Shown here: piece after piece, positions 23,680 through 39,137 of the stretch
Numbering within the stretch: position 1 is the first letter of the stretch
Layout of the letters: each line of letters begins with the position of its first letter
Assembly (NCBI RefSeq): GCF_050589845.1
Contig: NZ_JBNGPA010000003.1
Coordinates: 77,720-141,719, forward strand
Length of the DNA stretch: 64,000 bases
Direction of reading: 5' to 3'
Source: Carboxylicivirga agarovorans
Lineage (GTDB): Bacteria; Bacteroidota; Bacteroidia; Bacteroidales; Marinilabiliaceae
The notes under the pieces: generated by a model
What the model was told of the DNA's origin: nothing
The model's database searches: none
Seen by the model: the letters and a program-made list of their open reading frames with translations, nothing else
Program-made: the position numbers and the translations under genes

Positions 23680-23926
23680 AAGTTACCATGATTACAATGA
23701 ATCTAATATTTCATTAAGGTACTTTCTTGATTAAGCCCTTTAATCCCGCCCTAATGGGCGCTTTAATAAAATCACCGACATGGTTTACTACCATCTTTCA
23801 CCAACATGCCATCTTTCTCTTTTTCAACACACAACAAACTCTAATACCCATATAGCACAGTTGAGCATCGGTAAATGGCACAGGGCTTGGATAAGAGATA
23901 ACATGTTCCACTTAAACCTCACTATC

Positions 23927-26830
23927 ATGTTGAAAAATATAATCATCAGAAGCCTGATACTGGCTGGTTTGTTACGAAGCCTGGTCATGTGCTCACAGAC
24001 CATGCAAATGCCGGCGCCGGATATTGATGCCTTCCCTCAACTATCTGTTCAAAATGATTCCATCGATATTGAAATAGCATCCATGGACATTGGCATTAAA
24101 GTATTTGGCAATATCGCTATTACGTCCTACGACATCACATTCTATAATCCCTCCAATCGGGTGCTTGAAGGCGAATTAAACTTTCCATTAAAAGCCAACC
24201 AGGAGATTGTTGGTTTTTCAATGGATGTAGATGGCAAACTGCGCAAAGGCGTCGTGGTTGAAAAGCACAGGGGCAGGCAGGTATTTGAAACCATTGTCAG
24301 GGAAGGTATTGATCCCGGGCTGATCGAAAAAACAAGTGGTAATAACTTCAGGGCAAGGGTCTATCCAATTATGGCCAATGGCACAAAACGCATAGTCATC
24401 AGGTGCCAGGAAATACTTTCTATTTATAACAGCGATTACATTTATCAATTGCCCATGGGATTTCAAAGAGTGATTAAGGATTTCTCCATCAAAGCGGAAG
24501 TGGTAAAAGGGCACAAAAAACCGTCCATAATAACAAACGACTTCACTCACCTCAATTTCACTAAATGGGAAGAGTCATTTGTAGCTGAAGCAAGGCAAAA
24601 AACCATTTATGCATCGGGTTTGTTCGCCTTCTTATTACCCAACGCCGGCAAAAAAGAATTTGGTATCAGGTCGGATGACGGTCAATACTTCTATGCCACC
24701 GCCCCCATTGCCATGACAAGCAAAAACAAAGAGAAAGTCAGTCATATCCATCTACTTTGGGATGTATCGGGTTCAGGATCAAATAGAAATTCTGAGAAGG
24801 AGATAGATTTATTATCGGCCTATTTAAAATACCATGGAGACCTTAAAGTTTCGTTAACTCCCTTCAACCACGTCAAGCATCCTACAAGTGACTTTACCAT
24901 TATCAACGGAGACATTTCAGACCTGGCGAGTGCCATAAAATCGCTTCGCTACGATGGCGGAAGTTGCCTTGAAAATATTCCGTTTGATGAGTTCAATACC
25001 GGGGAGATACTGCTGTTTAGCGATGGTCTGATAAACTTTGGCGAACTGTCCATTAAGCAATGTAAATCACCCTTAAACATCATCAATTCTTCATTAAAAG
25101 CCGATCATTCCTTAATGGAACACTTAGCCCTCAGTAATAAAGGTACCTATATCGACTTATCCGTTTTAGCATTGAATGATGCTCTTGTTATGCTCGAAAA
25201 GCAACAAATTACGGCCGAGGCAGATAACATGAATGATCATACCAGTGATGTAATTATTACTTTATCACCTAATAAGAAACACCTTGTCATGACAGGAAAA
25301 GTACATCACGAAGATGCACTACTTGCCATTAAGCTATACAGTGGCAGTAATGAACTTGAGCGTTATGAAATGGAGATTCCGGAAGAACAAAGCTATCATG
25401 ATATCCCTGTGGCAAGAATATGGGCCTCTCAAAGGATAAATGTTTTATTACGGAATAAGCAGAAGCACAAAAACGATATTATTTCGTTGGCAACCAGGTA
25501 TGGTGTGGTAAGCGATTACACCTCTCTGATGGTTCTGGAGCGTCTCGAAGATTATATTCGCTTTGAAGTTGAACCTCCTGCGGAATGGAAAGGTGAATAT
25601 ACAAGAATAAAGAAGCGTAAAAAAGATCTTCAATCCAGCAACAAAGATGACTATACCCAAACAATAAACACCTACATAAAAGATTATAAAGAATGGTGGA
25701 ATACAACGTTTCCACAATCAAAAAGGTCTCCAAAAGGCAATACATCATTTCATGTTAGTGATCAAATGGATCTGGATGTTCCTATTACTCGACAGGAAGA
25801 AAACACACCACCACCACCCCCTCCTCCTGCAGAGACCAACATAGTTTCACTCATCATGATCGAAGATTCAGATATGGAGGAAGAGGCTTGCGATACACCT
25901 CCTGTAAGAAGCCGGGGCATGCAGGTTTATACCAATGCCATTCCATGGGACAGTACTGCAACATACATGACTGAAATTAGCAAACTAAAGGGGTCGGAGG
26001 CCTACCCCTATTATATCTCGGTGAAAGAAAAACATTTAAATCAACCTTCATTTTTTCTTGATATAGCTGCTTACCTATTTAAAATCAACAGAACGAAAGA
26101 AGGAGTTACCGTTATCACCAATATCGCAGAGCTACAGCTAGAAGATGCTGAAGTATTAAGGGTTGCAGGTCATAAATTAATAGAGCAGGATCAACTGGAA
26201 ACAGGCATTCTAGTCTTCAAAAAAATCAAGGAGATAAGACCTGAAGAGCTACAGTCATACCGCGACCTGGCACTGGCCCTTGAAAAAGCCGGGCGACACC
26301 AGGATGCTGTCGACCTGATGATTGAAGCCCTTCATCAGCCAGAGCTTAGAGCGAACAGCGGCATTAAAGGAATCCTTCTAAACGAAATCAACAGCTTATT
26401 AAACAAACACCCCCAATTGATTGAGACGACACAGCTTCCTGATGGGTGGCGTTACAACATGCCTGTATCCATTCGAATAGTATTAAGCTGGAGTACCGAT
26501 CATTCGGATGTTGACCTGTGGATTACAGAGCCTGGTGGCGAGCAGTGCATGTACAGTAATAACAGAACCTGCTTAGGTGGTCGCTTGTCGTATGATGTCA
26601 CCAATGGCTACGGACCCGAAGAGTACCTGATTAAATCGGCCAGGCAGGGCCGTTACAAGATACAAGCCAATTACTTTGGCGACAGGCGACCTTCAATCAC
26701 CGGCCCCATTACCTTGTATGCCGAGATATTTGAAAATTATGGTACCATGCAACAAACCAGCCGGCAAGTTGTATTGCAACTAAAGGAGCAAAAACAGGTT
26801 ATTGACCTGGGTGAAGTGAGAGTGGATTGA
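23927..26830 (+). CDS. secreted VIT + vWA + helical-repeat + C-terminal DUF2135 (YfaP-like) protein
   Basis: Start adjusted to the ATG at 23927 (signal peptide MLKNIIIRSLILAGLLRSLVMC). VIT-like block (EGELNFPLKANQEIVGFSMDVDGKLRKGVVVEKHRGRQVFETIV). vWA MIDAS DVSGSGS ... LLFSDGL. Poly-Pro linker. C-terminal SWSTDHSDVDLWITEPGGEQCMYSNNRTCLGGRLSYDVTNGYGPEEYLIKSARQGRYKIQANYFGD matches the DUF2135 domain of E. coli YfaP. Confidence 0.8.
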   Translation: MLKNIIIRSLILAGLLRSLVMCSQTMQMPAPDIDAFPQLSVQNDSIDIEIASMDIGIKVFGNIAITSYDITFYNPSNRVLEGELNFPLKANQEIVGFSMDVDGKLRKGVVVEKHRGRQVFETIVREGIDPGLIEKTSGNNFRARVYPIMANGTKRIVIRCQEILSIYNSDYIYQLPMGFQRVIKDFSIKAEVVKGHKKPSIITNDFTHLNFTKWEESFVAEARQKTIYASGLFAFLLPNAGKKEFGIRSDDGQYFYATAPIAMTSKNKEKVSHIHLLWDVSGSGSNRNSEKEIDLLSAYLKYHGDLKVSLTPFNHVKHPTSDFTIINGDISDLASAIKSLRYDGGSCLENIPFDEFNTGEILLFSDGLINFGELSIKQCKSPLNIINSSLKADHSLMEHLALSNKGTYIDLSVLALNDALVMLEKQQITAEADNMNDHTSDVIITLSPNKKHLVMTGKVHHEDALLAIKLYSGSNELERYEMEIPEEQSYHDIPVARIWASQRINVLLRNKQKHKNDIISLATRYGVVSDYTSLMVLERLEDYIRFEVEPPAEWKGEYTRIKKRKKDLQSSNKDDYTQTINTYIKDYKEWWNTTFPQSKRSPKGNTSFHVSDQMDLDVPITRQEENTPPPPPPPAETNIVSLIMIEDSDMEEEACDTPPVRSRGMQVYTNAIPWDSTATYMTEISKLKGSEAYPYYISVKEKHLNQPSFFLDIAAYLFKINRTKEGVTVITNIAELQLEDAEVLRVAGHKLIEQDQLETGILVFKKIKEIRPEELQSYRDLALALEKAGRHQDAVDLMIEALHQPELRANSGIKGILLNEINSLLNKHPQLIETTQLPDGWRYNMPVSIRIVLSWSTDHSDVDLWITEPGGEQCMYSNNRTCLGGRLSYDVTNGYGPEEYLIKSARQGRYKIQANYFGDRRPSITGPITLYAEIFENYGTMQQTSRQVVLQLKEQKQVIDLGEVRVD

Positions 26831-26885
26831 CCGGCTCCTGGTATCCCACCGCATCATTATGCTCTGCCCTGCGCAATTAAGACAA
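26825..26885. repeat. direct repeat copy 1 (GGATTGACCnnnnCCTGGTATCCC...), overlapping the stop codon of the VIT-vWA gene
   Basis: ~45/60 identity with 27186..27246. The first 9 bp and an 11-bp core are identical. Confidence 0.6.
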
Positions 26886-27086
26886 CAAAACTACAGCCTG
26901 TTATTGACAACTCGCTTAGTAATGATTGTATCAATGTGCAGGAATTCTGACATCAGTAACGCAGGCGGGGTACCCACTTGACGAAGTGAAGGATAGAAAG
27001 ATTTGAAGTGCGCAATGTAAATCTTTAAATCTTTCCCGGAACAAGGCAATAGTGGGTCGCTGAGTGCTGCCGTCAGCGGACTTTTT

Positions 27087-27119
27087 CTTCCCTTTTTTGA
27101 CTGTAGAAAAAAGGGAAAG
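27087..27119. terminator. hairpin TTCCCTTTTTT-gactgtag-AAAAAAGGGAA; candidate bidirectional terminator between convergent genes
   Basis: 11-bp stem with A/T runs on both sides. Lies in the convergent intergenic region. Confidence 0.4.
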
Positions 27120-27185
27120 CCCTTGCGGCTTGAGCAATTAAAAAAACAAATTATTGACTGCCCAAGTAGATTTACGATTGTAAGG

Positions 27186-27246
27186 GATTGACCAACACCT
27201 GGTATCCCGCAGAACCGTTGCGCTTTGCCCAGCGCTATAAAAATGC
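27186..27246. repeat. direct repeat copy 2 of the 26825..26885 element
   Basis: See copy 1. An inner repeat pair (TTATTGAC...GATTGTA at ~26900 and ~27150) is nested between the outer copies. Confidence 0.6.
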
Positions 27247-27374
27247 CAGACTACTGCTGCAGCGCGAATCCCTGCTCCAACTCTGAGGCTAATTAATTTC
27301 TTAAAAAGACTTCCGGTTTTAAGGGCAGGGAACCCATTGCAAAAAGAGAATTTACCGCAATGACAAAAGAAAAC

Positions 27375-28055
27375 CTAATAAACACTCATTGCCCCCCAAA
27401 GCTTGTCAAACTCCTTCTGATAGCTGTCAATTGCTTTTTTATCGTTGGTCTCAAGAATATTTTCCTGGTTAAACTGTGCAGCACTTCTTGTCCAGTTGTA
27501 ACTGCCGGTCAGCAATACCTCATCATCGAAGATAGCAAACTTATGGTGCATATGATGACTTGAATTGTCGACTTTCACACTGGCTCCTTTTCGCTGAAGA
27601 TATTCTATATCAGAACCTAAGTCGTTCGTTTTATCATCATCGGTTATTATTCTTACTTTAACGCCTTTGTTAATAGCATACTCCAGGCGATCCCTTATAT
27701 CATTGTCGCTGATGGTAAAAACACAAATATCAATTTTCCTTACAGCGTAACTGATCTGGGTAAGAATAGTAGATAAGCATTCCTGCCCCGGGCTAAAATA
27801 TGAGCGACAGTAAAAGCTTTGCCGCTCTTTCGGCAATATAAGCTTATTGGCTTCTTCCAGCCAGTCAATAACCTGAAGGTGTTTATAGTCACTGAAATGA
27901 TTCCGCGCTTCGTTAAAGACTTCGCTCCTGACACGATTCAGATCATGCTTACTTAGCTTCTTGTCACTGATGACAGATTTCAGGGCTTTCTTTTCTCCTT
28001 TGGTAAGAATTCTATCTTCAAGGGTTTGCTTTAAATAAGCTATTAGTTCTTTCAT
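27375..28055 (-). CDS. phospholipase D-family (single HKD motif) nuclease-like protein
   Basis: HHKFAIFDDEVLLTGSYNWT fits HxK(x4)D(x6)GSxN, the HKD signature of Nuc-type PLD nucleases. It has a ~90-aa helical N-terminal extension. Its ATG overlaps the stop of the upstream regulator by 4 bp (ATGA). Confidence 0.8.
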   Translation of the reverse strand: MKELIAYLKQTLEDRILTKGEKKALKSVISDKKLSKHDLNRVRSEVFNEARNHFSDYKHLQVIDWLEEANKLILPKERQSFYCRSYFSPGQECLSTILTQISYAVRKIDICVFTISDNDIRDRLEYAINKGVKVRIITDDDKTNDLGSDIEYLQRKGASVKVDNSSHHMHHKFAIFDDEVLLTGSYNWTRSAAQFNQENILETNDKKAIDSYQKEFDKLWGAMSVY

Positions 28056-28795
28056 AATTTATTTTGGATCGTTTTTTCAGTTAATCGGTATAGTTGTTCT
28101 TCCAGGCGATCAATTCGCTTTGATTCTGATTCACCTGAAAAACCGCCGATATATCTAATAACAGGATAATAATAATCAATATCATCAATATTTACCAGCA
28201 ATAAATCATAATCCACCTGTAAGATCAAAACAGTTTTGCCTGCTAATACTTTTAGCTTACTAATATAAATAGCACCACCTGTTTTAATCACATAATACTG
28301 ATCATTAGTAATGGATACCTGCTCTGTATCGACAATAATAATATCATTTTGCGTCATTGAATCGGGCATTGCTCTAAAGTCTCGAGGTGTGATATTAACA
28401 GCAACACATACGCCTGATCCCTCATTTAAAGGCATTTGCATACTATCAATCTCTACTTCATTATCCGACAACACTTTTTCAATATCGTGCACTGCAGGGC
28501 AAAAAGGGATGCTTTTTAACTCATAAACCAACTTACTTGAATTTTTAAATGTCGGCTCATTACCCACATCAAAATGATAAAGTTCATTTACGGTTAGCTC
28601 TTTATTGATCAGTTCATCGATCGTAATACTAAAATATTTAGCAACCCGATTAATTAAATCAATTTTAGGTTCTGCCCTCCCCTCTTCATATGAACCAACG
28701 CTAGCCCTTGATAAATCAAAGATTTCAGCAAATTCAGTCTGACTTATCTTTTGTATTGAACGTATCTTTCTAATATTACTTCCAAAATAACTCAT
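28052..28795 (-). CDS. XRE-family HTH transcriptional regulator with S24/LexA-like C-terminal domain
   Basis: N-terminal Cro/C1-type HTH (IRKIRSIQKISQTEFAEIFDLSRASVGSYEEGRAEP). C-terminal beta-rich domain of the LexA/CI peptidase S24 type. Catalytic residues were not verified. Confidence 0.65.
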   Translation of the reverse strand: MSYFGSNIRKIRSIQKISQTEFAEIFDLSRASVGSYEEGRAEPKIDLINRVAKYFSITIDELINKELTVNELYHFDVGNEPTFKNSSKLVYELKSIPFCPAVHDIEKVLSDNEVEIDSMQMPLNEGSGVCVAVNITPRDFRAMPDSMTQNDIIIVDTEQVSITNDQYYVIKTGGAIYISKLKVLAGKTVLILQVDYDLLLVNIDDIDYYYPVIRYIGGFSGESESKRIDRLEEQLYRLTEKTIQNKL

Positions 28796-28989
28796 AAATT
28801 ATTGCTAATTCTATTTGCACCAATAAAACATTTCGCTATATTTGCTAATGTGATTGTCAAAAGAACAAAAAAAACAATAGAAATGCTAACCAACCTAACT
28901 CTTTCTTATGATTTTAAATAACCTCCCTATGTTTAATGAGACAATATTTTTTTTAAATTCAAAACCCGAAAAATGATTAAACCACTCTA

Positions 28990-29388
28990 ATGATGGAAAA
29001 CTATTTTAAAAAAGTTAAGAATTACCTTTTGGAACTGGATTGCGAAGTAGTTAACGAAAACGAGAGCGAGGGCGTTCTTGTCGTTACTAAGCCCGAAGAA
29101 GGAATTGTCAATTTAGTTTTAGGTTGTGTCGACCCTCTCCTAATCATGGAGCAATTTATTTTTGAAATTAATGGGGATAACATGAGTGTGTTCAAGCAGT
29201 TACTGATGAAGAACCGGGACATTGTTCACGGCGCCTTTGTGCTCGACGAAACTGGTCACAAGGTCATATTCAGAGATACCCTTCAAATTGAAAACCTTGA
29301 TCTAAACGAATTAGAAGGTTCTATTAATTCATTAAGCCTTTTGCTTAGTGAGTATGCCAATGAAATTATTAAGTTTTCTACAAATTAG
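28990..29388 (+). CDS. small acidic protein upstream of pspA (possible PspA-associated / YbjN-like)
   Basis: 132 aa with no TM helix. It ends 8 bp before the pspA start. Family assignment is tentative. Confidence 0.35.
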   Translation: MMENYFKKVKNYLLELDCEVVNENESEGVLVVTKPEEGIVNLVLGCVDPLLIMEQFIFEINGDNMSVFKQLLMKNRDIVHGAFVLDETGHKVIFRDTLQIENLDLNELEGSINSLSLLLSEYANEIIKFSTN

Positions 29389-29396
29389 AGTAAGCC

Positions 29397-30110
29397 ATGA
29401 ACGTATTTAGTAGATTATTCAGAATAGGAAGTGCCGAGGCTCATTCGGCAATAGATAAGTTAGAAGATCCCATTAAAATGACCGAACAAGGTATTCGCGA
29501 TCTTAAAACAAACTTAGATGACAGCTTAAAAGCTTTGGCTGAGGTTAAAGCCTTATCTATACGTGCGAAAAACGACTACGAAAACAACCGTTCCCGCGCA
29601 GGCGAATACGAAAACAAAGCCATCCTTTTACTTAAAAAAGCGGAAAAAGGAGAATTAGCAGCTGAAGAAGCTGACCGCCTGGCAACAGAAGCCCTTACTA
29701 AAAAGGAGGAGTGCTTGAGCATGGCTTCACAAAAGCAAGGTGAAGTAACCCGCTTTGAACAGAATCTGGCGCAATTAGACAGCAACATCAAGAAGCTGCG
29801 CTCACAAATCAGCACATACGAAAACGAATTAAAGACGCTGAAAGCACGTGTTAAGGTCAGTAAAGCTACGAAGAGCATTAATAAGCAAATGGCACAGATC
29901 GACTCCGACAGCACCATTAGCATGCTCGAAAAAATGAAAGAAAAAGTTGACCAGGAAGAAGCATTGTCTGAAGCTTATGGTGAGATCGCCAATGAATCAA
30001 AGTCATTGGATGACGAAATTGATTCTGCCCTTGGAGGAAATAAAGCTGAAGCCGCTGAATCATTAGCCGAGCTAAAAGCTAAATTAGGTTTAGATAAAAA
30101 AGAAGAATAA
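29397..30110 (+). CDS. pspA: PspA/IM30 family protein (phage shock protein A)
   Basis: MNVFSRLFRIGSAEAHSAIDKLEDPIKMTEQGIRDLKTNLDDSLKALAEV... aligns along its whole length with E. coli PspA ([40 protein letters not shown]...). Coiled coil throughout. Confidence 0.9.
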   Translation: MNVFSRLFRIGSAEAHSAIDKLEDPIKMTEQGIRDLKTNLDDSLKALAEVKALSIRAKNDYENNRSRAGEYENKAILLLKKAEKGELAAEEADRLATEALTKKEECLSMASQKQGEVTRFEQNLAQLDSNIKKLRSQISTYENELKTLKARVKVSKATKSINKQMAQIDSDSTISMLEKMKEKVDQEEALSEAYGEIANESKSLDDEIDSALGGNKAEAAESLAELKAKLGLDKKEE

Positions 30111-30127: not shown

Positions 30128-30922
30128 ATGCCACTGGCATTAACCTTTTTTGTTCAATTGACAATCGTTGGTTTCGCTTATCCGGAACCAATAATAACCA
30201 ATCCAAATCCCTCTGTCATGAAGGAATTATTTGAAGCTGCCTTTTCAGGAGTAAACATCATCCCTACAGTACTGTTAATCCTCGTATTATTCTATTGGCT
30301 AATGGTGATCATTGGCGCAATGGATGTTGACTCGGTTGACTTTGATCTGGATGCTGATATTGACGTTGATGTAGATGTGGATGTCGACGTAGATGTGGAT
30401 GCTGATGTAGATGTGGATGCCGACATTGATGGCGCCGATTCTGCAGGAGAAGGCATTGGCTCGATAGCATTCCTAAACTCAATATTGGTCTTTTTTAACC
30501 TTGGTAAGATCCCATTTATGGTATGGCTGAGCTTTCTGATCTTCCCGATGTGGATCATATCCATATTGTTTAACCACTTTATGGGTAACAGCTCATTCTT
30601 ACTGGCATTAGTAGCATTGATACCAAACCTGGTTGTAAGTCTTATGGTTTCAAAAGTTCTTACAACACCCATTGCAGCGCTATTCGCCAGACTTAAAAAG
30701 AACAATGACGACCAGTTTAAATACACAGGTAAAATATGCACTGTGTTGATGCGTGCTACCCGCGATAGGTTTGGCCAGGCAGAAATAAACAGAAATGGCA
30801 ACATCTACCGTGTTAATATTCTTACACATGACGAGGTAATATTGGAAAAAGGCCAGACAGCCCTGATAATAGAATACCTACCCGAAAAGAAGTGTTATTT
30901 AGTCGAACCCTATAAAATTTAA
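30128..30922 (+). CDS. YqiJ/NfeD-like membrane protein with acidic (DV)n tract and C-terminal OB-fold
   Basis: Multiple TM helices. (DV/DA/DI)n tract DADIDVDVDVDVDVDVDADVDVDADIDGAD. C-terminal beta-rich segment (GKICTVLMRATRDRFGQAEINRNGNIYRVNILTHDEVILEKGQTALIIEY) is typical of NfeD-like domains. It lies immediately upstream of a flotillin gene, as in E. coli yqiJK and B. subtilis ydjH-ydjI. Confidence 0.6.
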   Translation: MPLALTFFVQLTIVGFAYPEPIITNPNPSVMKELFEAAFSGVNIIPTVLLILVLFYWLMVIIGAMDVDSVDFDLDADIDVDVDVDVDVDVDADVDVDADIDGADSAGEGIGSIAFLNSILVFFNLGKIPFMVWLSFLIFPMWIISILFNHFMGNSSFLLALVALIPNLVVSLMVSKVLTTPIAALFARLKKNNDDQFKYTGKICTVLMRATRDRFGQAEINRNGNIYRVNILTHDEVILEKGQTALIIEYLPEKKCYLVEPYKI

Positions 30923-33195: not shown

Positions 33196-36100
33196 ATGTC
33201 TGATAATCAAAACACCACAGATAAAAACATACAGCTTGAAGAAGGCACCTACGAAATCATCAAAAACAGATTACGTAAGAGTGCCGGAGAATTAGGTCAA
33301 AGGTTAGAGCAACTCAATACCTCACGTAAAGATGTGTTTGGCTCCATTGAAAGTACACTGGTCGCCACCGATCGTATCGGTACCGAAAACAACTGTACTC
33401 CCGCCGACATGGTTGCCCTGGGTAACACATTGCTTTTTGGTTATAATGTAACCATGGGATTAAAGACTAAAACTTCACTGGACGATGTGTTTAGTGTCTA
33501 CAACTTCAATGAGCACGCCTTTGACCAGAAGAATATGAACATCATTAATGACTCTCAGTTCATTAATGATTTCGACAACCTGTATGAGTATTATAAAGAA
33601 ACGCAGTTTAAGAAATTTGCAACAATCGGTCCTCATCTGTTTATGGTGTTTCAGACGGGGAAAAGTAAAGACGACATAAAAGCATTCAAATGGCTGATCA
33701 AAGGTGATCATTTAGAATATAAAGGCAACAGGAGTACACATGAATTTGTATTTCCCGATCAACATGAATTTAAGTGGGAAAAAGTAACTCGTGAACAGTA
33801 TGTATATGGCGAGCACCCGCATGTCTCCATCGAAGATAAGGTCTTTGTTGAAGCCGTTGGTGGAGATATCACTTTTAAGATAGAGGATAATACGGATTCT
33901 GGTTATGGTATATATGCCGAAGAGGTGGAGGTAAAAGACCAAACCCTTGATGATGCTGAGATGCATTATGCCATCATTGGTAACCTTATCATCATTCGCA
34001 TACTGCCCTATAAAGAGAATGAGTTCAGGTATTTCGTTTACAACTCAAAAATCCAGAAGGTCCAGCGCATCGATGCCCTGGAGGATTCATGCGTTCTTTT
34101 ACCGGATGATCAGGGACTGATCTTTGCCAATGGATATTATTTGCAGAATGGACAATTCAAGCTTTTCGACAGAGACATTAAAGGGTTAATGTTTGAGCGG
34201 AAGCTGGCTTCCATCAACGGAGAGGATTTTCTTTATACTTTTTACAATCAAGATATTGGTGCTTATGTATTGTTGATATACAACTTAATCAATCAACGCG
34301 TTGAAACACCAATGATCTGTAATGGATATTCATTGTTTGACAATGGTGAGTTATGCTACTTTAAAAAGCCCGATGAACCAACCCGTCATCATGTCATCCA
34401 GGTATGGCAAACACCCTTTATGACAGTCGAACACCAGGTGGCACCAACAAATAATTCACGTTTATACAAAATCGGCAATAAGGATGTTGTAAAAGCCATG
34501 GCTGAATGTAACGAAGTCATCCTGCTTGTTAATAAAGATGAGACCTATGCCGACATATACGGAGATCTGGTAAAACGCTGTACCGACGTTATTGACAGCT
34601 ATTACTGGCTATCTGAAGAAGATGCTTTTGATATTAAAACGCCGCTTACTGAAATTAAAGAATCGGCATTTTCGGCCATCGCCGAATATGAAAAAGTCAG
34701 AAACATTCGCAAGAATACCAAAGAACGGATCAAAGAGGTAAGCGACAAGGTTAATGAAATATTCAGCCACATATCCAAGCAGCAAATTGGAGATATTGAC
34801 CGCTACGTCGAATTACTGGCAGCACTGCGAACTGTCAGAGGTGAGGTAATTGGCCTGAAAGAACTGCGTTATGCGGATTTACCATACATCGAAGAACTGG
34901 AGAATAATGTCGAAGAGAAAACCGTTCGTTTATCACAGGATTGCGTCACATTTCTGCTCAGGGATGAAGCCCTTAATTCATACGAGGAAAAAGTCAATAA
35001 CATACGCGAGAATGTAGGCAAAATTGCTAAAGTCAGTGAAGCAGATGATCTATCAGACGAGATAATAAAACTGGCTGGCCAGCTGGAAATGCTTATTGAC
35101 ATAGTGAGCAACCTGAAAATTGAGGATGCCACTCAAACAACACAGATCATTAACAATATATCAGGGGTATATTCACAATTCAACCTGATAAAAACAGACC
35201 TTAAAAAGCAACGTAAAAGCCTGAGGGCTGTTGAAGCCAAAGCTGAATTCAACTCGCAGCTGAAGCTGGTTGAGCAAGGTATGCTAAATTACATCGACCT
35301 TTGCGACTCTCCGGGTAAAACAGATGAGTATTTATCCAAACTCATGGTTCAACTGGAAGAGCTGGAAGGTAAGTTCTCTGATTTTGATGAGTTTATGCCA
35401 ACCATTGCCGAGCGACGCGAGCAGGTCTACAATGCTTTTGAATCCAAAAAGCTTAGCCTGGTTGAGGAACGTAACCGCAAAACCACAGCTCTGCAATCAT
35501 CTGCCGAGCGCATTTTGAAAGCTATACGAAGTCGCGTATCCAAGTTTAAAGAGACCAGCGAGGTAAACGGCTACTTTGCGTCAGATCTGATGATTGAGAA
35601 AGTGCGCGATGTCATTACACAGCTTAAAGAGTTGGATGACAGCGTTAAGGCCGACGACCTGGAGAGTAAATTAAAGTCTTTAAAGGAAGAAACGATACGA
35701 CAGATCAAAGACCGCACTGAGCTGTTTGAGAACGGTGCCAACATCATTAAGTTTGGTAATCACAAGTTCTCTGTCAATACCCAGGCTTTGGAACTTTCAA
35801 TGGTCAATAAAGATGGAAGCATGTTCTACCACCTGACCGGAACAAACTTCTTTGAAGAAGTGAAAGACACAGAGTTTATCGCAACAAAAGATATTTGGAA
35901 CCAGCTCCTGCCCTCTGAAAACAATACTGTTTACAGGGCGGAATACCTGGCCTATGAAATATTCAATGCCTCTAAAAACAAAGCAGAAGGTCACCTGTCG
36001 ATTGCCGACCTGGCCGAATTAGATACAAAAGCCCTGGTAGAGCATGTTCAGAAAATAATGTCCTTGCGTTTTAGCGAAGGCTATTCAAAAGGAGTACATG

Positions 36101-38094
36101 ATATTGATACAGCCATTATCCTGAAACAACTTCTGGATGTATACAAAAATGCCGGCCTGCTTCGCTACCCTGCTGATGCAAGAGCAATGGCAGAGTACTT
36201 CTGGAAAGTATATTGCTCTGAAGATGTGCGATCAGATTTAAATAATAACCTGAAAGGTGCCGGGTTGATCATCAAGGTTTTCCCCGACACACATCAGTTC
36301 GATTATTTGCTGGATACTTTGGTTAAGATGCTTGAAGAATTTCAGGCGGCCGAACAACTATTTAATGAACAGAGCATTGAAGATGCAGCTCATTTCCTTT
36401 TCCACCAGATGCTGGAATCCGATGAATTCATCATCTCCAAGGCAGCCATCAGTCACATGGATGGATTTGTAGCATACTTAAGAAAAAACAGGGCTACAAA
36501 AACTTACGAAGAATCATTAAAGCCTTTATTAAAGGACCATCCCAACGCCTATCGCCTGATCACTAAATGGGTAAAAGCCTATTTGGATATGGAAGGTAAA
36601 CCGGCAGAATACCTGAATGAGATAAGCATCACCCTCTTACTTGATTCTAAATTGCGTAAAAAGCTGATCGATCAGCCTGTGTCATCTGAACTAAAAGGTT
36701 TAAAAGGATCGCATCAGTTGATCAGTGAGAATAAGTACCAGTTCCACTTTAATGCTTTTATGGCTAAGCTGACTGGCTTTAGCCGTTTGGTTGTGCCTAA
36801 GTTTGAGAAGTACAATATACTGAAGAAGCAACTGACAGATTCATTCTCAGAAGAACTGCGCCTGAATGAATTTAAACCCCGTGTATTGTCCTCATTTGTC
36901 AGGAACAAATTAATTGACAAAGTTTATTTTCCACTGATAGGTAATAACCTGGCCAAACAAATAGGTGCTGAGGGAGCCGGCAAACGAACTGATTTAATGG
37001 GCATGCTGTTGCTGATCTCTCCTCCGGGTTATGGTAAAACCACATTAATGGAGTACCTGGCAAGTCGCCTTGGCATCATATTCATGAAGATCAATGGCCC
37101 ATCCATTGGACACACCATTACTTCACTGGATCCTTCTGAAGCTGAAAATGCAGCAGCCAGGGAAGAGCTTGAAAAACTAAACCTGTCTTTTGAGATGGGC
37201 GACAATGTAATGATCTACCTGGATGATATTCAACATTGCAACCCTGAGTTCCTGCAGAAATTTATTTCACTTTGTGATGCACAGAGAAAGGTAGAAGGCG
37301 TATACAAAGGTAAAAGTAAAACCTACGACTTCAGAGGTAAAAAAGTATGCGTGGTAATGGCGGGTAATCCATACACAGAAAGTGGTGAGAAGTTTAAAAT
37401 TCCGGACATGTTAGCCAACAGGGCCGACATCTATAATATTGGTGACATAATCGGAGGGTCTGATGAAGAATTTAAGTTGAGCTACATTGAAAACTCCCTC
37501 ACCTCCAATCCTGTATTGAATAAGTTGGCTTCTAAAAGCCAGAAAGACTTATATACACTTATTTCCATCGCCCAAACAGGCAGTAAAGACGGACTTGAAT
37601 TTGAAGCATCACACACACCGGAGGAAGTCAATGAATATGTGACCGTACTTAAAAAGCTGTTGACAGCGCGTGATGTTATTCTGAAGGTGAACCTGGAATA
37701 TATCTCTTCAGCTGCTCAGGCCGATGAATACAGATCCGAGCCACCGTTTAAATTACAAGGCTCTTACAGGGATATGAATAAGATATCGGAGAAAATTTTG
37801 CCGATCATGAATGATCAGGAACTGGAAACATTGCTTTTGTCTCACTATCGCAATGAAGCACAGACACTGACAAGTGGCGCCGAAGCTAACATTCTTAAAT
37901 TTAAAGAGATATACGGTGTAATCACAGCCGAAGAAACGGAACGCTGGACTGAACTGAAAGAAACCTTTGTCAGAAATAATAAATTGAAGGGAATGGGTAG
38001 CGATAAGCAGGCTGCACATGTTCTGGTTCAGATGGAGGAAATTGCCAAAGGTGTATTCGGCATTAAGGATGAGATTGGTAAGAACAAGAATTAA
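33196..38094 (+). CDS. giant (1632 aa) protein with a single MoxR-type (AAA_5-like) AAA+ ATPase module near the C-terminus
   Basis: Uninterrupted 4.9-kb ORF. Walker A LLLISPPGYGKTTLMEYL. Walker B VMIYLDDIQHC. CVVMAGNPYTESGEKFKIPDMLANRADIY parallels the MoxR motif [23 protein letters not shown]. About 1200 aa of mixed alpha/beta and coiled-coil sequence precede the ATPase with no other P-loop. A degenerate GAEGAGKRT sits just upstream of the true P-loop. Confidence 0.85.
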   Translation: MSDNQNTTDKNIQLEEGTYEIIKNRLRKSAGELGQRLEQLNTSRKDVFGSIESTLVATDRIGTENNCTPADMVALGNTLLFGYNVTMGLKTKTSLDDVFSVYNFNEHAFDQKNMNIINDSQFINDFDNLYEYYKETQFKKFATIGPHLFMVFQTGKSKDDIKAFKWLIKGDHLEYKGNRSTHEFVFPDQHEFKWEKVTREQYVYGEHPHVSIEDKVFVEAVGGDITFKIEDNTDSGYGIYAEEVEVKDQTLDDAEMHYAIIGNLIIIRILPYKENEFRYFVYNSKIQKVQRIDALEDSCVLLPDDQGLIFANGYYLQNGQFKLFDRDIKGLMFERKLASINGEDFLYTFYNQDIGAYVLLIYNLINQRVETPMICNGYSLFDNGELCYFKKPDEPTRHHVIQVWQTPFMTVEHQVAPTNNSRLYKIGNKDVVKAMAECNEVILLVNKDETYADIYGDLVKRCTDVIDSYYWLSEEDAFDIKTPLTEIKESAFSAIAEYEKVRNIRKNTKERIKEVSDKVNEIFSHISKQQIGDIDRYVELLAALRTVRGEVIGLKELRYADLPYIEELENNVEEKTVRLSQDCVTFLLRDEALNSYEEKVNNIRENVGKIAKVSEADDLSDEIIKLAGQLEMLIDIVSNLKIEDATQTTQIINNISGVYSQFNLIKTDLKKQRKSLRAVEAKAEFNSQLKLVEQGMLNYIDLCDSPGKTDEYLSKLMVQLEELEGKFSDFDEFMPTIAERREQVYNAFESKKLSLVEERNRKTTALQSSAERILKAIRSRVSKFKETSEVNGYFASDLMIEKVRDVITQLKELDDSVKADDLESKLKSLKEETIRQIKDRTELFENGANIIKFGNHKFSVNTQALELSMVNKDGSMFYHLTGTNFFEEVKDTEFIATKDIWNQLLPSENNTVYRAEYLAYEIFNASKNKAEGHLSIADLAELDTKALVEHVQKIMSLRFSEGYSKGVHDIDTAIILKQLLDVYKNAGLLRYPADARAMAEYFWKVYCSEDVRSDLNNNLKGAGLIIKVFPDTHQFDYLLDTLVKMLEEFQAAEQLFNEQSIEDAAHFLFHQMLESDEFIISKAAISHMDGFVAYLRKNRATKTYEESLKPLLKDHPNAYRLITKWVKAYLDMEGKPAEYLNEISITLLLDSKLRKKLIDQPVSSELKGLKGSHQLISENKYQFHFNAFMAKLTGFSRLVVPKFEKYNILKKQLTDSFSEELRLNEFKPRVLSSFVRNKLIDKVYFPLIGNNLAKQIGAEGAGKRTDLMGMLLLISPPGYGKTTLMEYLASRLGIIFMKINGPSIGHTITSLDPSEAENAAAREELEKLNLSFEMGDNVMIYLDDIQHCNPEFLQKFISLCDAQRKVEGVYKGKSKTYDFRGKKVCVVMAGNPYTESGEKFKIPDMLANRADIYNIGDIIGGSDEEFKLSYIENSLTSNPVLNKLASKSQKDLYTLISIAQTGSKDGLEFEASHTPEEVNEYVTVLKKLLTARDVILKVNLEYISSAAQADEYRSEPPFKLQGSYRDMNKISEKILPIMNDQELETLLLSHYRNEAQTLTSGAEANILKFKEIYGVITAEETERWTELKETFVRNNKLKGMGSDKQAAHVLVQMEEIAKGVFGIKDEIGKNKN

Positions 38095-38112: not shown

Positions 38113-38526
38113 ATGGACTTTAGAAATTACTTTGATTCAGCAGAAGCACAACTGGCTTTATTTATTAAAATGGCCAAAGCAGATGGTGAAATAATACAGG
38201 CAGAAATGATGTTTTTAAAATTACTGGCCCACAAGCTGGAGATTAAAAGCAGTGATTTTGACGCCATATTGGATAACTATGAAAAATATAAGTATTTACC
38301 GCCTGCCAATGAGAAAGAGCGCTTTATGACTCTTTATATTCTTATCCAGATGATGAAAGTGGATCTGTCTATGAAGGAAGAAGAAGTGGAGTTTTGTCTT
38401 GAAATAGGCAAACGCCTTCATATAGATGACAATAAAATGAGAAGTATCATTGAGCTCTCGAAAGAACAGGAGAAGAAGGTAGTAGGCTACGAGGAGATCG
38501 AGAAACTTTTGATGCCTGTTATATAA
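38113..38526 (+). CDS. TerB-like (tellurite-resistance TerB / DjlA-N-like) small helical protein
   Basis: LALFIKMAKADGEIIQAEMMFLKLLAHKLEI and a second helical repeat resemble the TerB domain pattern (IAKADGxxxxxEl..l..lA..Lgl). It starts 18 bp after the giant gene's stop. Confidence 0.45.
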   Translation: MDFRNYFDSAEAQLALFIKMAKADGEIIQAEMMFLKLLAHKLEIKSSDFDAILDNYEKYKYLPPANEKERFMTLYILIQMMKVDLSMKEEEVEFCLEIGKRLHIDDNKMRSIIELSKEQEKKVVGYEEIEKLLMPVI

Positions 38527-38735: not shown

Positions 38736-39137
38736 ATGAACTGCCCAAGATGCCAGCACCCACTTGCTGTCACACATATTGACGATTGCAAAACAAGCAT
38801 TGAAGTTGACAAATGTCCAAACTGCAAAGGCGTTTGGTTCGATAAGGATGAGCTGAGTCAAATTGAAGGCATCATCGAACCAATGTTTATTGAGATAAGA
38901 GACATACCTGATAAGCAAGAACAGTTTGAAACGCTGCATTGCCCTAAATGTAACAATTCTCCCCGCCTGCAAAAAGCAATTCACCCGCGCGACAGTAAGG
39001 TCGTTATCGATTATTGCCCATATTGCGATGGCATTTGGCTCGACAAGGGTGAACTGGAAGCCATACAACAAGAAAATTTCATTATTACCATAGCAAAGAT
39101 CTTTACCTGCTTAAGTCGTATAAGATCACGTAAGTGA
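38736..39137 (+). CDS. tandem TFIIB-type zinc-ribbon protein, paralog of 8935..9327
   Basis: CPRCQH...CPNCKGVWFDKDELSQI and CPKCNN...CPYCDGIWLDKGELEAI. Roughly half the residues are identical to the 8935 copy along the full length. Confidence 0.7.
   Translation: MNCPRCQHPLAVTHIDDCKTSIEVDKCPNCKGVWFDKDELSQIEGIIEPMFIEIRDIPDKQEQFETLHCPKCNNSPRLQKAIHPRDSKVVIDYCPYCDGIWLDKGELEAIQQENFIITIAKIFTCLSRIRSRK

Follow-up and report, generated by a model that had tools for sequence, protein, structure and literature searches.

The closest described relative of the locus analysed here is a class of operons (PMC11237479, mSystems 2024) in which CesT/Tir-PspA genes are combined with band-7/flotillin, novel AAA+ and YqiJ/YuaF genes, and which is joined in some Proteobacteria by an HKD/PLD hydrolase. 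The terms LexA and S24 are absent from that paper by term search, and it describes neither a PLD link in Bacteroidota nor the promoter and box architecture or the PLD6 affinity reported below. A literature search for a characterised bacterial member of the PLD family, or of DUF3686, returned nothing beyond that study and PMC9239133. The regulation of the PspA/flotillin/AAA+ membrane-stress system is previously undescribed.

Among the proteins with a single HKD motif, PLD6 (MitoPLD/Zucchini; 4ggj, 4gel and 9lkx) is eukaryotic and carries an N-terminal transmembrane anchor. Whether its substrate is lipid or RNA is debated. Nuc (Salmonella pKM101, 1byr) and NucT (Helicobacter pylori, 6ehi) are exported and, like Zucchini/PLD6, are known as nucleases. 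The repressors LexA, lambda CI and phage 186 CI bind DNA through their N-terminal domain, which a linker joins to a beta domain at the C-terminus; phage 186 CI is inactivated by an anti-repressor, a precedent for the relief of repression without cleavage. Promoters of Bacteroides follow the established consensus TTTG-N19-TAnnTTTG.

The window, which is the whole 64-kb stretch of DNA that was analysed, shares with the operon class of PMC11237479 the order CesT_Tir_1, PspA_IM30 and DUF3686 AAA+, and probably the full gene set, with a putative YqiJ-like and a putative flotillin-like gene between PspA_IM30 and the AAA+ gene. It differs in that the PLD gene lies outside the operon, as the second of two genes in a divergent operon that opens with the gene of an XRE/LexA-like regulator. 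In this report, we argue that the regulator/PLD pair is probably a conserved adjunct to the membrane-stress system of Bacteroidota that lies next to it, CesT/Tir-PspA-YqiJ-flotillin-AAA+(DUF3686), with the PLD as an optional accessory, and not a mobile cassette. The features of the region are:

27375-28055, minus strand: single-HKD PLD gene, 226 aa (ORF call)
PLD residues 1 to ~80: N-terminal four-helix domain, family-specific, with no Pfam match
28052-28055, minus strand: ATGA stop/start overlap that couples the regulator and PLD ORFs (read from the sequence)
28052-28795, minus strand: XRE-family regulator gene, 247 aa (ORF call)
Regulator residues ~1-66: HTH, followed by a linker; ~90-216: LexA/CI-like beta domain without the dyad; ~225-246: conserved C-terminal helix
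28796-28989, no strand: control region that separates the regulator gene from the divergent CesT/Tir-PspA operon (8-way alignment of orthologous intergenic sequences and cross-order comparison)
28803-28808, 28843-28848 and 28884-28889, plus strand: three TGCTAA boxes, candidate operators, on the same strand with 40 and 41 bp spacing
28814-28844, plus strand: candidate Bacteroidetes-type promoter TTTG-N19-TATATTTG, a pattern match that points at the CesT/Tir-PspA operon
28990-29388, plus strand: CesT/Tir-like chaperone, first gene of the operon (Pfam CesT_Tir_1, 2.2e-56)
29397-30110, plus strand: PspA/IM30 (bacterial ESCRT-III) homologue (Pfam PspA_IM30, 1.3e-43)
30128-30922, plus strand: putative YqiJ/YuaF-like membrane protein, containing an acidic (DV)n repeat (no Pfam or PDB sequence match; the gene in the same position of locus L087 has a YqiJ_N match; operon described in PMC11237479)
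30930-33071, plus strand: putative flotillin-like protein of ~710 aa (no Pfam or PDB sequence match)
33196-38094, plus strand: AAA+ ATPase of 1632 aa with an N-terminal extension, DUF3686 + DUF7902 + AAA (Pfam DUF3686, 2.8e-186)
38113-38526, plus strand: TerB-domain protein directly after the AAA+ gene (Pfam TerB, 6.4e-9)

The CesT/Tir-like and PspA genes that open the plus-strand operon are adjacent, 8 bp apart. The putative flotillin-like protein is 27% identical in its N-terminal part to the protein encoded at the corresponding place of locus L087, which has a weak Band_7 match, and 32% identical to the product of the gene before the AAA+ gene in Vibrio. The AAA+ ATPase itself is 38-39% identical, over its full length, to the product of the Vibrionaceae gene directly before the PLD, and the TerB-domain protein probably belongs to the same system. 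Pfam gives DUF3686 the putative label “ATPase involved in DNA repair”. On the left of the pair, the neighbour had been labelled a vWA gene, a name that its Pfam matches (VIT and DUF2135, with no vWA model at E<=0.01) do not bear out.

The regulator and PLD genes form the minus-strand pair with a 4-bp ATGA overlap that was originally read, the ATGA being common to both ORFs. The regulator-PLD operon also recurs elsewhere, at 17 genome loci and 7 metagenome loci. The gap between the two genes in orthologous pairs is roughly 0-24 bp, an operon-tight spacing that is kept across three orders; the few apparent outliers, from -56 to 91 bp, hinge on the ORF start that is called. Every locus that has both regulator and PLD also has the CesT-PspA-YqiJ-flotillin-AAA+ cluster next to them, and the arrangement of an HTH gene and PLD divergent to CesT-PspA-YqiJ-Flot-AAA was found in 17 of the ~75 informative genome loci. 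None of these ~75 loci has the regulator without the CesT-PspA cluster.

In the metagenomic data, CesT/PspA lie beside the regulator relative in 59 of 60 loci, these being the regulator relatives with at least 1.2 kb of upstream sequence. The PLD was far less constant, being carried by ~10% of the metagenomic relatives: among the 51 metagenomic loci with both flanks, it lies 3' of the regulator in 6 and is missing in 45 (~88%). It is also missing from the Hymenobacter locus L086 and from locus L087, both of which contain the regulator and the cluster. A scheme in which effectors are swapped 3' of the regulator was rejected, as the PLD is the sole recurrent and tightly coupled gene in that position (7 of 72 metagenomic loci) and no second one was found. 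The PLD, in turn, occurs without the regulator in about three quarters of the genome loci (~58 of 75), where it stands alone among housekeeping genes and has an ABC-F ATPase, cyclophilin, rpoD and similar genes as neighbours. Searches of these unlinked loci with HMMs of the cluster found no divergent Psp genes, and the idea of hidden ones was discarded. The PLD family follows taxonomy, and the linked loci are paraphyletic and basal in a neighbour-joining tree that has no support values. Because ~75% of PLD orthologues are unlinked and the PLD is missing from ~88% of regulator loci, it would appear to be dispensable for the Psp-like system and may have an independent role.

A further arrangement is found on chromosome 2 of Vibrio campbellii and Photobacterium, which encodes a full-length PLD with 40% identity, N-terminal domain included. 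The Vibrionaceae PLD gene lies inside the operon, immediately next to the stop codon of the gene for the DUF3686 AAA+ protein and 3' of the flotillin-like gene, and in Vibrio campbellii it is followed by a TelA gene. This arrangement is an independent second linkage of the PLD to the same system, in another position and orientation, and it bears out in Vibrio and Photobacterium the PLD link that PMC11237479 notes for some Proteobacteria.

The control region between the two operons is strongly conserved across orthologous loci in the half nearer the regulator, as seen when 8 orthologous intergenic regions are aligned, although the regulators of these loci share only 31-57% identity. The promoter candidate within it is composed of TTTG (28814-28817), N19 and TATATTTG (28837-28844). 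Its pattern occurs 3 times in the window against 3.5 expected, a count that alone is not significant; its core positions are invariant in the 8-way intergenic alignment. The first TGCTAA box lies just upstream of the -33 element and the middle box overlaps the -7 element. With 17 same-strand copies of TGCTAA in the 64-kb window, ~0.02 would be expected per 87 bp, and three are observed. Orthologues all keep the TAGC core in the two boxes nearer the regulator, and most of them also keep the third box. A scan for sigma-70-type promoters gave no more matches than in shuffled sequence and was set aside as using a model unsuited to Bacteroidota. For the regulator's own promoter, TAnnTTTG was sought on the minus strand and had no match. 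The orientation of the pair, opposed to that of its neighbours, had been taken as the mark of an acquired insert. It reflects a conserved divergent promoter region instead.

The regulator has the architecture of LexA, lambda CI and phage 186 CI, and the original prediction of an XRE HTH joined to a CI/LexA-like beta domain was confirmed by several means. Its HTH matches Pfam HTH_3 (1.5e-9), comparison with the LexA C-terminal domain by hhalign gave a probability of 84%, and the AF2 model (pLDDT 82), composed of HTH, linker, beta domain and C-terminal helix, has phage 186 CI, lambda CI and LexA as its best fold matches in Foldseek. The Peptidase_S24 match is weak, at 20.1 bits against a Pfam cut-off of 23.3. 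The regulator differs from LexA and lambda CI in an additional conserved C-terminal helix and in a Ser/Lys dyad that is not conserved. This dyad, a point that had been left for checking, is absent across the regulator family in both hhalign and family alignments. LexA S119 aligns to R141 (hhalign) or D139 (MAFFT), in a column that holds Arg, Asp, Glu, His or Ala in the family, and LexA K156 aligns to S174, in a column of Ser, Gly or Arg. The stretch “PDSM...SKLK”, which by eye resembles a Ser/Lys dyad, was rejected since the alignments place the LexA Ser and Lys elsewhere and the residues vary in orthologues. No conserved AG or CG was found at the aligned LexA cleavage position, where the linker alignment is unreliable and the model has pLDDT <50 (residues 76-87). 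As the S24 dyad is absent family-wide, self-cleavage of the LexA/CI type is unlikely, and in this respect the regulator would resemble phage 186 CI. A protein of Carboxylicivirga sp. RSCT41 is 100% identical to the regulator.

The PLD carries one PLDc_2 domain (residues 97-220; 1.9e-31, 109.1 bits against a Pfam cut-off of 27) with the catalytic motif HHMHHKFAIFDDEVLLTGSYNWT. The pattern HxK(x4)D(x6)GSxN is intact, and H168, H170, K172, D177, G184, S185 and N187 are invariant in 23 orthologues. PLD6 is the best sequence match of the PLD family profile; in the PDB profile search it scored 1.5e-39, followed by Nuc at 1.3e-19 and NucT at 6.7e-17, and the catalytic domain is ~30% identical to that of PLD6. 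In the AF2 model (pLDDT 85.5), four N-terminal helices (residues 2-73) precede a fold of the Nuc/NucT/Zucchini type, for which the Foldseek matches included NucT, Zucchini and Nuc (E ~1e-12 to 1e-13; target TM-scores 0.66-0.87). These results agree with the original description of a single-HKD, nuclease-type PLD with a helical N-terminal extension, which measures ~85 aa. The PLD shares the fold and single HKD with PLD6, but it is bacterial and cytoplasmic, and in place of a transmembrane anchor it has a soluble four-helix domain with no hydrophobic segment. It likewise shares the single-HKD fold and motif with Nuc and NucT (target TM-score 0.85-0.87). Unlike the window PLD, however, those two lack the N-terminal helical domain, and its scores of 45-62 bits fall far below the NCBIfam equivalog cut-offs for NucT (211-351). 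No signal peptide or transmembrane segment was found in the PLD, the maximum in a 19-residue Kyte-Doolittle window being 1.2. The question of lipid or RNA that surrounds PLD6 applies to the window PLD as well; the acidic character of its catalytic domain (median pI 5.8) says nothing on either substrate.

The original prediction as a whole was of an acquired, inducible defence or toxin module, of which the domain calls and the recurrent pair stand and the cassette is mostly unsupported, given the synteny and the missing dyad. In such a cassette, the CI/LexA-like repressor would be cleaved on DNA damage or phage infection and so free the PLD nuclease, and the nuclease-type fold of the PLD and the CI/LexA architecture of the regulator are both in keeping with this. 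So are the GC content of the pair (0.32-0.36, slightly under the ~0.40 of the flanks), the sequence 3' of the PLD, which differs between close relatives, and weak or partial matches of the PLD to DrmC, DpdK and MkoC models (PADLOC/NCBIfam). The NCBIfam scores, however, are far under the curated cut-offs (DrmC 31.3 against 133; DpdK 39.7 against 100). Although the PLDc_2 domain is common to DISARM DrmC, Dpd DpdK and Mokosh MkoB/C, the window locus has no partner gene from these systems and lies in a context of conserved chromosomal synteny, and the seven neighbours match no PADLOC model, giving only coiled-coil noise on PspA. Phage matches to the PLD are partial only, and full-length matches in the plasmid collection are solely on Vibrionaceae second chromosomes. 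Scans of the region for tRNA and Rfam families found nothing, and insertion-type flanking repeats were looked for around the pair with none found, apart from an unrelated 57-nt duplication downstream. An independent insert is also hard to reconcile with a cluster that adjoins every regulator-PLD pair, with a regulator that lacks the catalytic dyad and keeps that cluster mostly without the PLD, and with PLD orthologues that follow taxonomy in housekeeping contexts. The acquired cassette is already largely refuted by the synteny data and is very improbable, which removes a false lead towards a new defence cassette. Scarcely credible is a type II toxin-antitoxin module, in which the XRE-HTH antitoxin would neutralise the PLD toxin and autoregulate. 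The overlapping two-gene operon with the HTH gene first would suit it, and the HTH weakly matches the antitoxin families PezA, HipB and MqsA; those matches, however, cover the generic HTH alone, far under cut-off, and the regulator is a three-part protein of 247 aa fixed beside the Psp cluster. Regulator and PLD are moreover far more often apart than together, and are not an obligate pair.

Two other explanations concern the PLD. The linkage could be historical only, a housekeeping PLD having happened to lie downstream of the regulator in a Bacteroidota ancestor with no functional tie to the Psp-like system. The many unlinked PLD loci in housekeeping surroundings would be expected from this, and the paraphyletic, basal position of the linked loci fits inheritance by descent. 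It is nonetheless improbable in view of the tight spacing that persists in three orders, of the Vibrionaceae, which join the same PLD family to the flotillin-AAA+ core in another position and orientation, and of the same PLD link that PMC11237479 gives for Proteobacteria. A more serious alternative, which we consider possible but would not prefer, is that the regulator controls the Psp-like operon and the PLD is a stress-induced, Zucchini/Nuc-like endonuclease of single-strand RNA or DNA instead of a lipid enzyme, either recruited to the membrane machine or acting on membrane-proximal RNA or DNA. Its closest solved relatives (Zucchini/PLD6, Nuc and NucT) and its intact HKD motif are in favour, as is the company of TerB and TelA genes, a gene set predicted to link to DNA processing; the putative Pfam label of DUF3686 would point the same way. 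Set against this are the acidic catalytic domain of the PLD, the lack of any fused nucleic-acid-binding domain in it, and the nature of its conserved partners, which all serve in membrane remodelling or as membrane scaffolds.

We favour a conserved appendix of the membrane-stress system, in which the regulator would be the dedicated transcription factor of the neighbouring Psp-like genes. We infer that it binds the phased TGCTAA boxes over the TTTG-N19-TAnnTTTG promoter and represses the divergent operon. Derepression would come not from self-cleavage but from another signal, for instance a ligand or a partner protein that acts on the beta domain or the C-terminal helix. The PLD, translationally coupled to and co-transcribed with the regulator gene, would be a cytoplasmic member of the PLD6 (MitoPLD/Zucchini) clade, a single-HKD phosphodiesterase that presumably forms homodimers, serving the flotillin/AAA+/PspA machine as an optional accessory enzyme. 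That it hydrolyses cardiolipin or phosphatidylglycerol to phosphatidic acid at the stressed membrane, and so aids ESCRT-III-like remodelling, is a guess that we would place slightly short of even. To our knowledge, all well-characterised small single-HKD proteins (Nuc, NucT and Zucchini) are nucleases, and this, together with the fold matches of the PLD, weakens the lipid guess; that the PLD is instead a single-strand nuclease, as Zucchini and Nuc are, is almost as likely.

A widespread and uncharacterised PspA/flotillin/AAA+ system of Bacteroidota thus gains a candidate for its dedicated regulator, together with a specific candidate operator and promoter. In two phyla, and in a different gene arrangement in each, the bacterial proteins closest to eukaryotic MitoPLD/Zucchini are linked to an ESCRT-III-like membrane-remodelling system, and this repeated linkage makes the disputed lipid-versus-RNA activity of the clade testable in bacteria. 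The fullest form of the proposal is that the PLD is a lipid hydrolase recruited by its N-terminal domain to PspA/flotillin/AAA+, while a pseudo-protease, LexA-like repressor senses membrane stress via a partner. All of this together is rather unlikely; if true, it would provide a prokaryotic antecedent of the membrane-fusion role of MitoPLD and of PLD-assisted ESCRT remodelling, and would allow the long-standing question of PLD6 as lipase or nuclease to be approached in a tractable bacterium.

The N-terminal domain is particular to this PLD. A likeness to TerB, suggested by the spacing of D14 and E21, was rejected on an hhalign probability of 0.2% against the TerB protein of the window and the lack of a Pfam match. 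Its use as a promiscuous module was also rejected, as a search of 1.84 billion representatives gave 66 matches, essentially all of which belong to this same PLD, as N-termini or as fragments; the one exception is an uninformative protein of 475 aa.

The regulator and the PLD form a minus-strand two-gene operon with an ATGA overlap, as originally predicted.

28052..28795, minus strand: regulator ORF, 247 aa, from ORF calling
27375..28055, minus strand: PLD ORF, 226 aa, from ORF calling
28052-28055, minus strand: ATGA tetranucleotide common to both ORFs, from the sequence

The domain assignments of that prediction, an HTH plus a LexA/CI-like beta domain upstream and a single-HKD PLD with a helical N-terminal extension downstream, were also borne out. 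The regulator matches Pfam HTH_3 (1.5e-9) and, weakly, Peptidase_S24 (20.1 bits versus a cut-off of 23.3). In its model (pLDDT 82), a disordered linker joins an HTH to a beta domain, which is followed by a long C-terminal helix; the fold resembles those of phage 186 CI, lambda CI and LexA. A protein of Carboxylicivirga sp. RSCT41 is 100% identical to the regulator. The PLD matches Pfam PLDc_2 (109 bits) and contains the motif HHMHHKFAIFDDEVLLTGSYNWT. Among 23 orthologues, no variation is seen at H168, H170, K172, D177, G184, S185 or N187, and the HKD site is intact. The AlphaFold model of the PLD (pLDDT 85.5) places four N-terminal helices (residues 2-73) before an alpha/beta domain, and the PDB folds that it matches best, those of NucT, Zucchini/PLD6 and Nuc, are of nuclease type.

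The S24 Ser/Lys dyad, a further point raised for checking, has been lost from the regulator, as judged by alignment. Aligned by profile with E. coli LexA (probability 84%), the regulator has R141 in the place of LexA S119 and S174 in that of K156; a MAFFT alignment sets S119 opposite D139. When 23 family members are aligned, Cytophagales and Hymenobacter show xGxEM at the 'GxSM' position and the window's clade shows PRDF, PHEI or the like; the LexA Lys position is taken by Arg, Ser or Gly. The 'PDSM' of the window regulator was ruled out as a dyad site, as it is not conserved. In two orthologues the LexA-like beta domain is missing altogether, though not the HTH or the conserved C-terminal helix; both orthologues are followed by the PLD and are divergent to the Psp cluster.

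5200-5535 of genome locus L053: short regulator, 111-116 aa
9638-9988 of genome locus L058: short regulator, 111-116 aa

On these alignments, the regulator is unlikely to be a self-cleaving repressor and its beta domain is a degenerate, non-catalytic LexA/CI-like module, whose role is presumably oligomerisation or signal reception.

Three contexts were looked at first, from two Carboxylicivirga and one Fulvivirgaceae; in all of them the HTH-to-PLD pair is divergent to the same five genes, encoding CesT_Tir_1, PspA_IM30, a ~225-aa membrane protein, a ~710-aa protein and a ~1630-aa DUF3686 AAA+ ATPase, and its opposite flank is different in each. Genomes were then surveyed for PLD relatives at one genome per species, and the best 80 loci were kept and compared with the window proteins. 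The regulator lies upstream of the PLD in 17 of these, with the Psp-like cluster divergent in 17/17; one further locus, that of the closest relative (L006), is cut off inside the regulator. No locus among the best 80 has the regulator without the cluster. The converse survey, of the regulator family at 80 metagenome loci, found CesT/PspA beside the regulator in 59/60 loci with at least 1.2 kb upstream. The synteny of the regulator with the CesT/Tir-PspA locus is therefore near-obligate. The link also survives rearrangement, since in a few metagenome loci CesT and/or PspA lie downstream of the regulator on the same strand rather than divergently (among them L093, L095 and L107).

The PLD is the looser partner. 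It is present in 6/51 metagenome regulator loci having both flanks, and a Hymenobacter genome (L086) and another assembly (L087) carry regulator and cluster without it; it is also the only recurrent, tightly spaced, co-directional gene downstream of the regulator (7/72, gaps of 2-15 bp). In ~58/75 informative genome loci the PLD stands alone among housekeeping genes (ABC-F ATPase, ABC ATPase, glucan phosphorylase, cyclophilin, SDR, rpoD), and an HMM search of these loci found no Psp components. A neighbour-joining tree, which carries no support values, has the linked PLDs paraphyletic and basal within Bacteroidota, with a topology that tracks taxonomy. Phage genomes gave only partial, weak PLD matches, and a plasmid collection gave full-length PLDs only on second chromosomes of Vibrio campbellii and Photobacterium sp. 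GJ3. There the order is a 203-aa ORF, flotillin-like (32% identical to the window protein), DUF3686 AAA+ (38-39% over ~1620 aa), PLD (40%) and TelA, with the PLD start abutting the AAA+ stop. In Vibrionaceae, this PLD family is tied to the same core system a second time and in another gene arrangement. Linkage of the PLD is facultative but recurrent, in two phyla.

The spacer between regulator and cluster was compared with those of seven orthologous loci, whose regulators are just 31-57% identical to the window regulator.

28796-28989: spacer of 194 bp between the regulator and the CesT/PspA operon, aligned with seven orthologous spacers
28814-28817 and 28837-28844, plus strand: promoter-like element TTTG, N19, TATATTTG, directed toward the CesT/PspA operon, in invariant blocks
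28803, 28843 and 28884: three TGCTAA boxes on the same strand, spaced by 40 and 41 bp

The invariant blocks occupy the regulator-proximal half of the spacer. The element fits the Bacteroides -33/-7 promoter consensus, TTTG...TAnnTTTG, by pattern match. Such matches number 3, with 3.5 expected, a frequency that is not significant by itself; the case rests on conservation and position. The middle TGCTAA box overlaps the -7 element and the first lies just upstream of the -33 element. At the equivalent position, Cytophagales and Flavobacteriales have both a TACTAAAA-n-TTTTAGTA palindrome and a TTAGCA box. The alignments thus establish a conserved promoter-like element overlapped by phased boxes. 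The regulator's own promoter was sought and not found. A second conserved block, TTTAAATTCAAAACCCGAAAAAT (28950-28985, plus strand), lies just upstream of the CesT start, in what may be a ~140-nt leader of the CesT/PspA operon; among Carboxylicivirga-level relatives the block is kept, and it has no Rfam match.

We consider it fairly probable that the pair is a Psp-locus regulator plus an accessory PLD, not a defence cassette. The regulator would bind the TGCTAA boxes, occlude the promoter of the divergent operon and so repress it, with relief by a non-proteolytic signal; the PLD would be co-expressed through translational coupling and assist the flotillin/AAA+/PspA machine as an accessory enzyme. 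The inducible nuclease-based defence module of the original prediction finds an echo in weak or partial PADLOC matches of the PLD to DrmC, DpdK, MkoC and similar models. Against it stand NCBIfam DrmC and DpdK scores far under cut-off, seven neighbours with no PADLOC match except coiled-coil noise, and the loss of the dyad. Nor does independent acquisition agree with the constant divergent cluster: no tRNA, Rfam match or flanking insertion repeats were found around the pair, and its GC of 0.32-0.36, somewhat under the ~0.40 of the flanks, is weak evidence that partly reflects the AT-rich spacer. A toxin-antitoxin pair, with the regulator as antitoxin and the PLD as toxin, fails because the two are found apart far oftener than together.

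The substrate of the accessory PLD is quite possibly phospholipid, given partners that are membrane-remodelling proteins and a closest relative, PLD6, called cardiolipin hydrolase. Single-stranded nucleic acid, on which Nuc, NucT and Zucchini act, is a tentative alternative with biochemical precedent. The family profile matches PLD6 (MitoPLD/Zucchini) at 1.5e-39, far ahead of Nuc (1.3e-19) and NucT (6.7e-17). The window PLD has no hydrophobic segment and is therefore predicted to be cytoplasmic, unlike the exported Nuc and NucT and the membrane-anchored PLD6. No Pfam model matches its N-terminal helical domain. When 1.84 billion representatives were searched exhaustively for this domain, 66 matches came up, essentially all the N-terminus of the same PLD or its fragments, with one uninformative 475-aa exception. 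A similarity of this domain to the nearby TerB protein was considered and none was found. That the PLD is a phosphatidic-acid-generating, ESCRT-III-associated bacterial antecedent of MitoPLD seems rather unlikely.

An operon class of CesT/Tir-PspA with a TM-band-7-flotillin protein, a novel AAA+ ATPase and a YqiJ/YuaF-like protein has been described (PMC11237479), and the class and its HKD association are already published. A term search of PMC11237479 found no mention of LexA or S24, PMC9239133 goes no further than noting that pspA generally tends to lie close to HTH genes, and no characterised bacterial member of the window PLD's family was found in the literature. What this analysis adds is the LexA-like pseudo-protease regulator that constantly accompanies the Bacteroidota version of the operon, together with its candidate operator and promoter; it also adds the arrangement of regulator and PLD in one operon, the PLD's affinity to PLD6 and its private N-terminal domain.

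Several neighbouring genes have features of their own. The YqiJ-like membrane protein (30128-30922, plus strand), with no Pfam or PDB match, carries a long acidic repeat of the form (Asp-Val/Ile)n, DVDVDVDVDVDADVDVDADIDGAD, flanked by predicted hydrophobic segments. A 137-aa TerB-domain protein (38113-38526, plus strand) directly follows the AAA+ gene; a homologue lies just downstream of the PLD in one genome locus (L021), and in Vibrio campbellii the toxic-anion resistance gene TelA directly follows the PLD (L089, 12700-13758). Tellurite-resistance-type proteins seem to be further accessories of the Psp-like system. Downstream of the TerB gene, a 133-aa protein (38736-39137, plus strand) has two TFIIB-type zinc-ribbon matches, and its homologues occur several kb upstream of the PLD in some unlinked loci (L064, L067, L068). 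The left neighbour (23780-26830, plus strand), initially read as vWA, scores as VIT plus DUF2135, with no vWA model at E<=0.01; it has a poly-Pro tract and adjoins the PLD only in L006. A 57-nt direct repeat (75% identity; 26824-26880 and 27185-27241, 361 bp apart) touches the spacer 26831-27374, its first copy spanning the VIT gene stop codon and 3' flank. Between the VIT gene and the PLD stop codon, the window exceeds L006 by ~450 bp (c. 26921-27369), a segment that holds the second copy; from its sequence, this looks like a local duplication or insertion scar.
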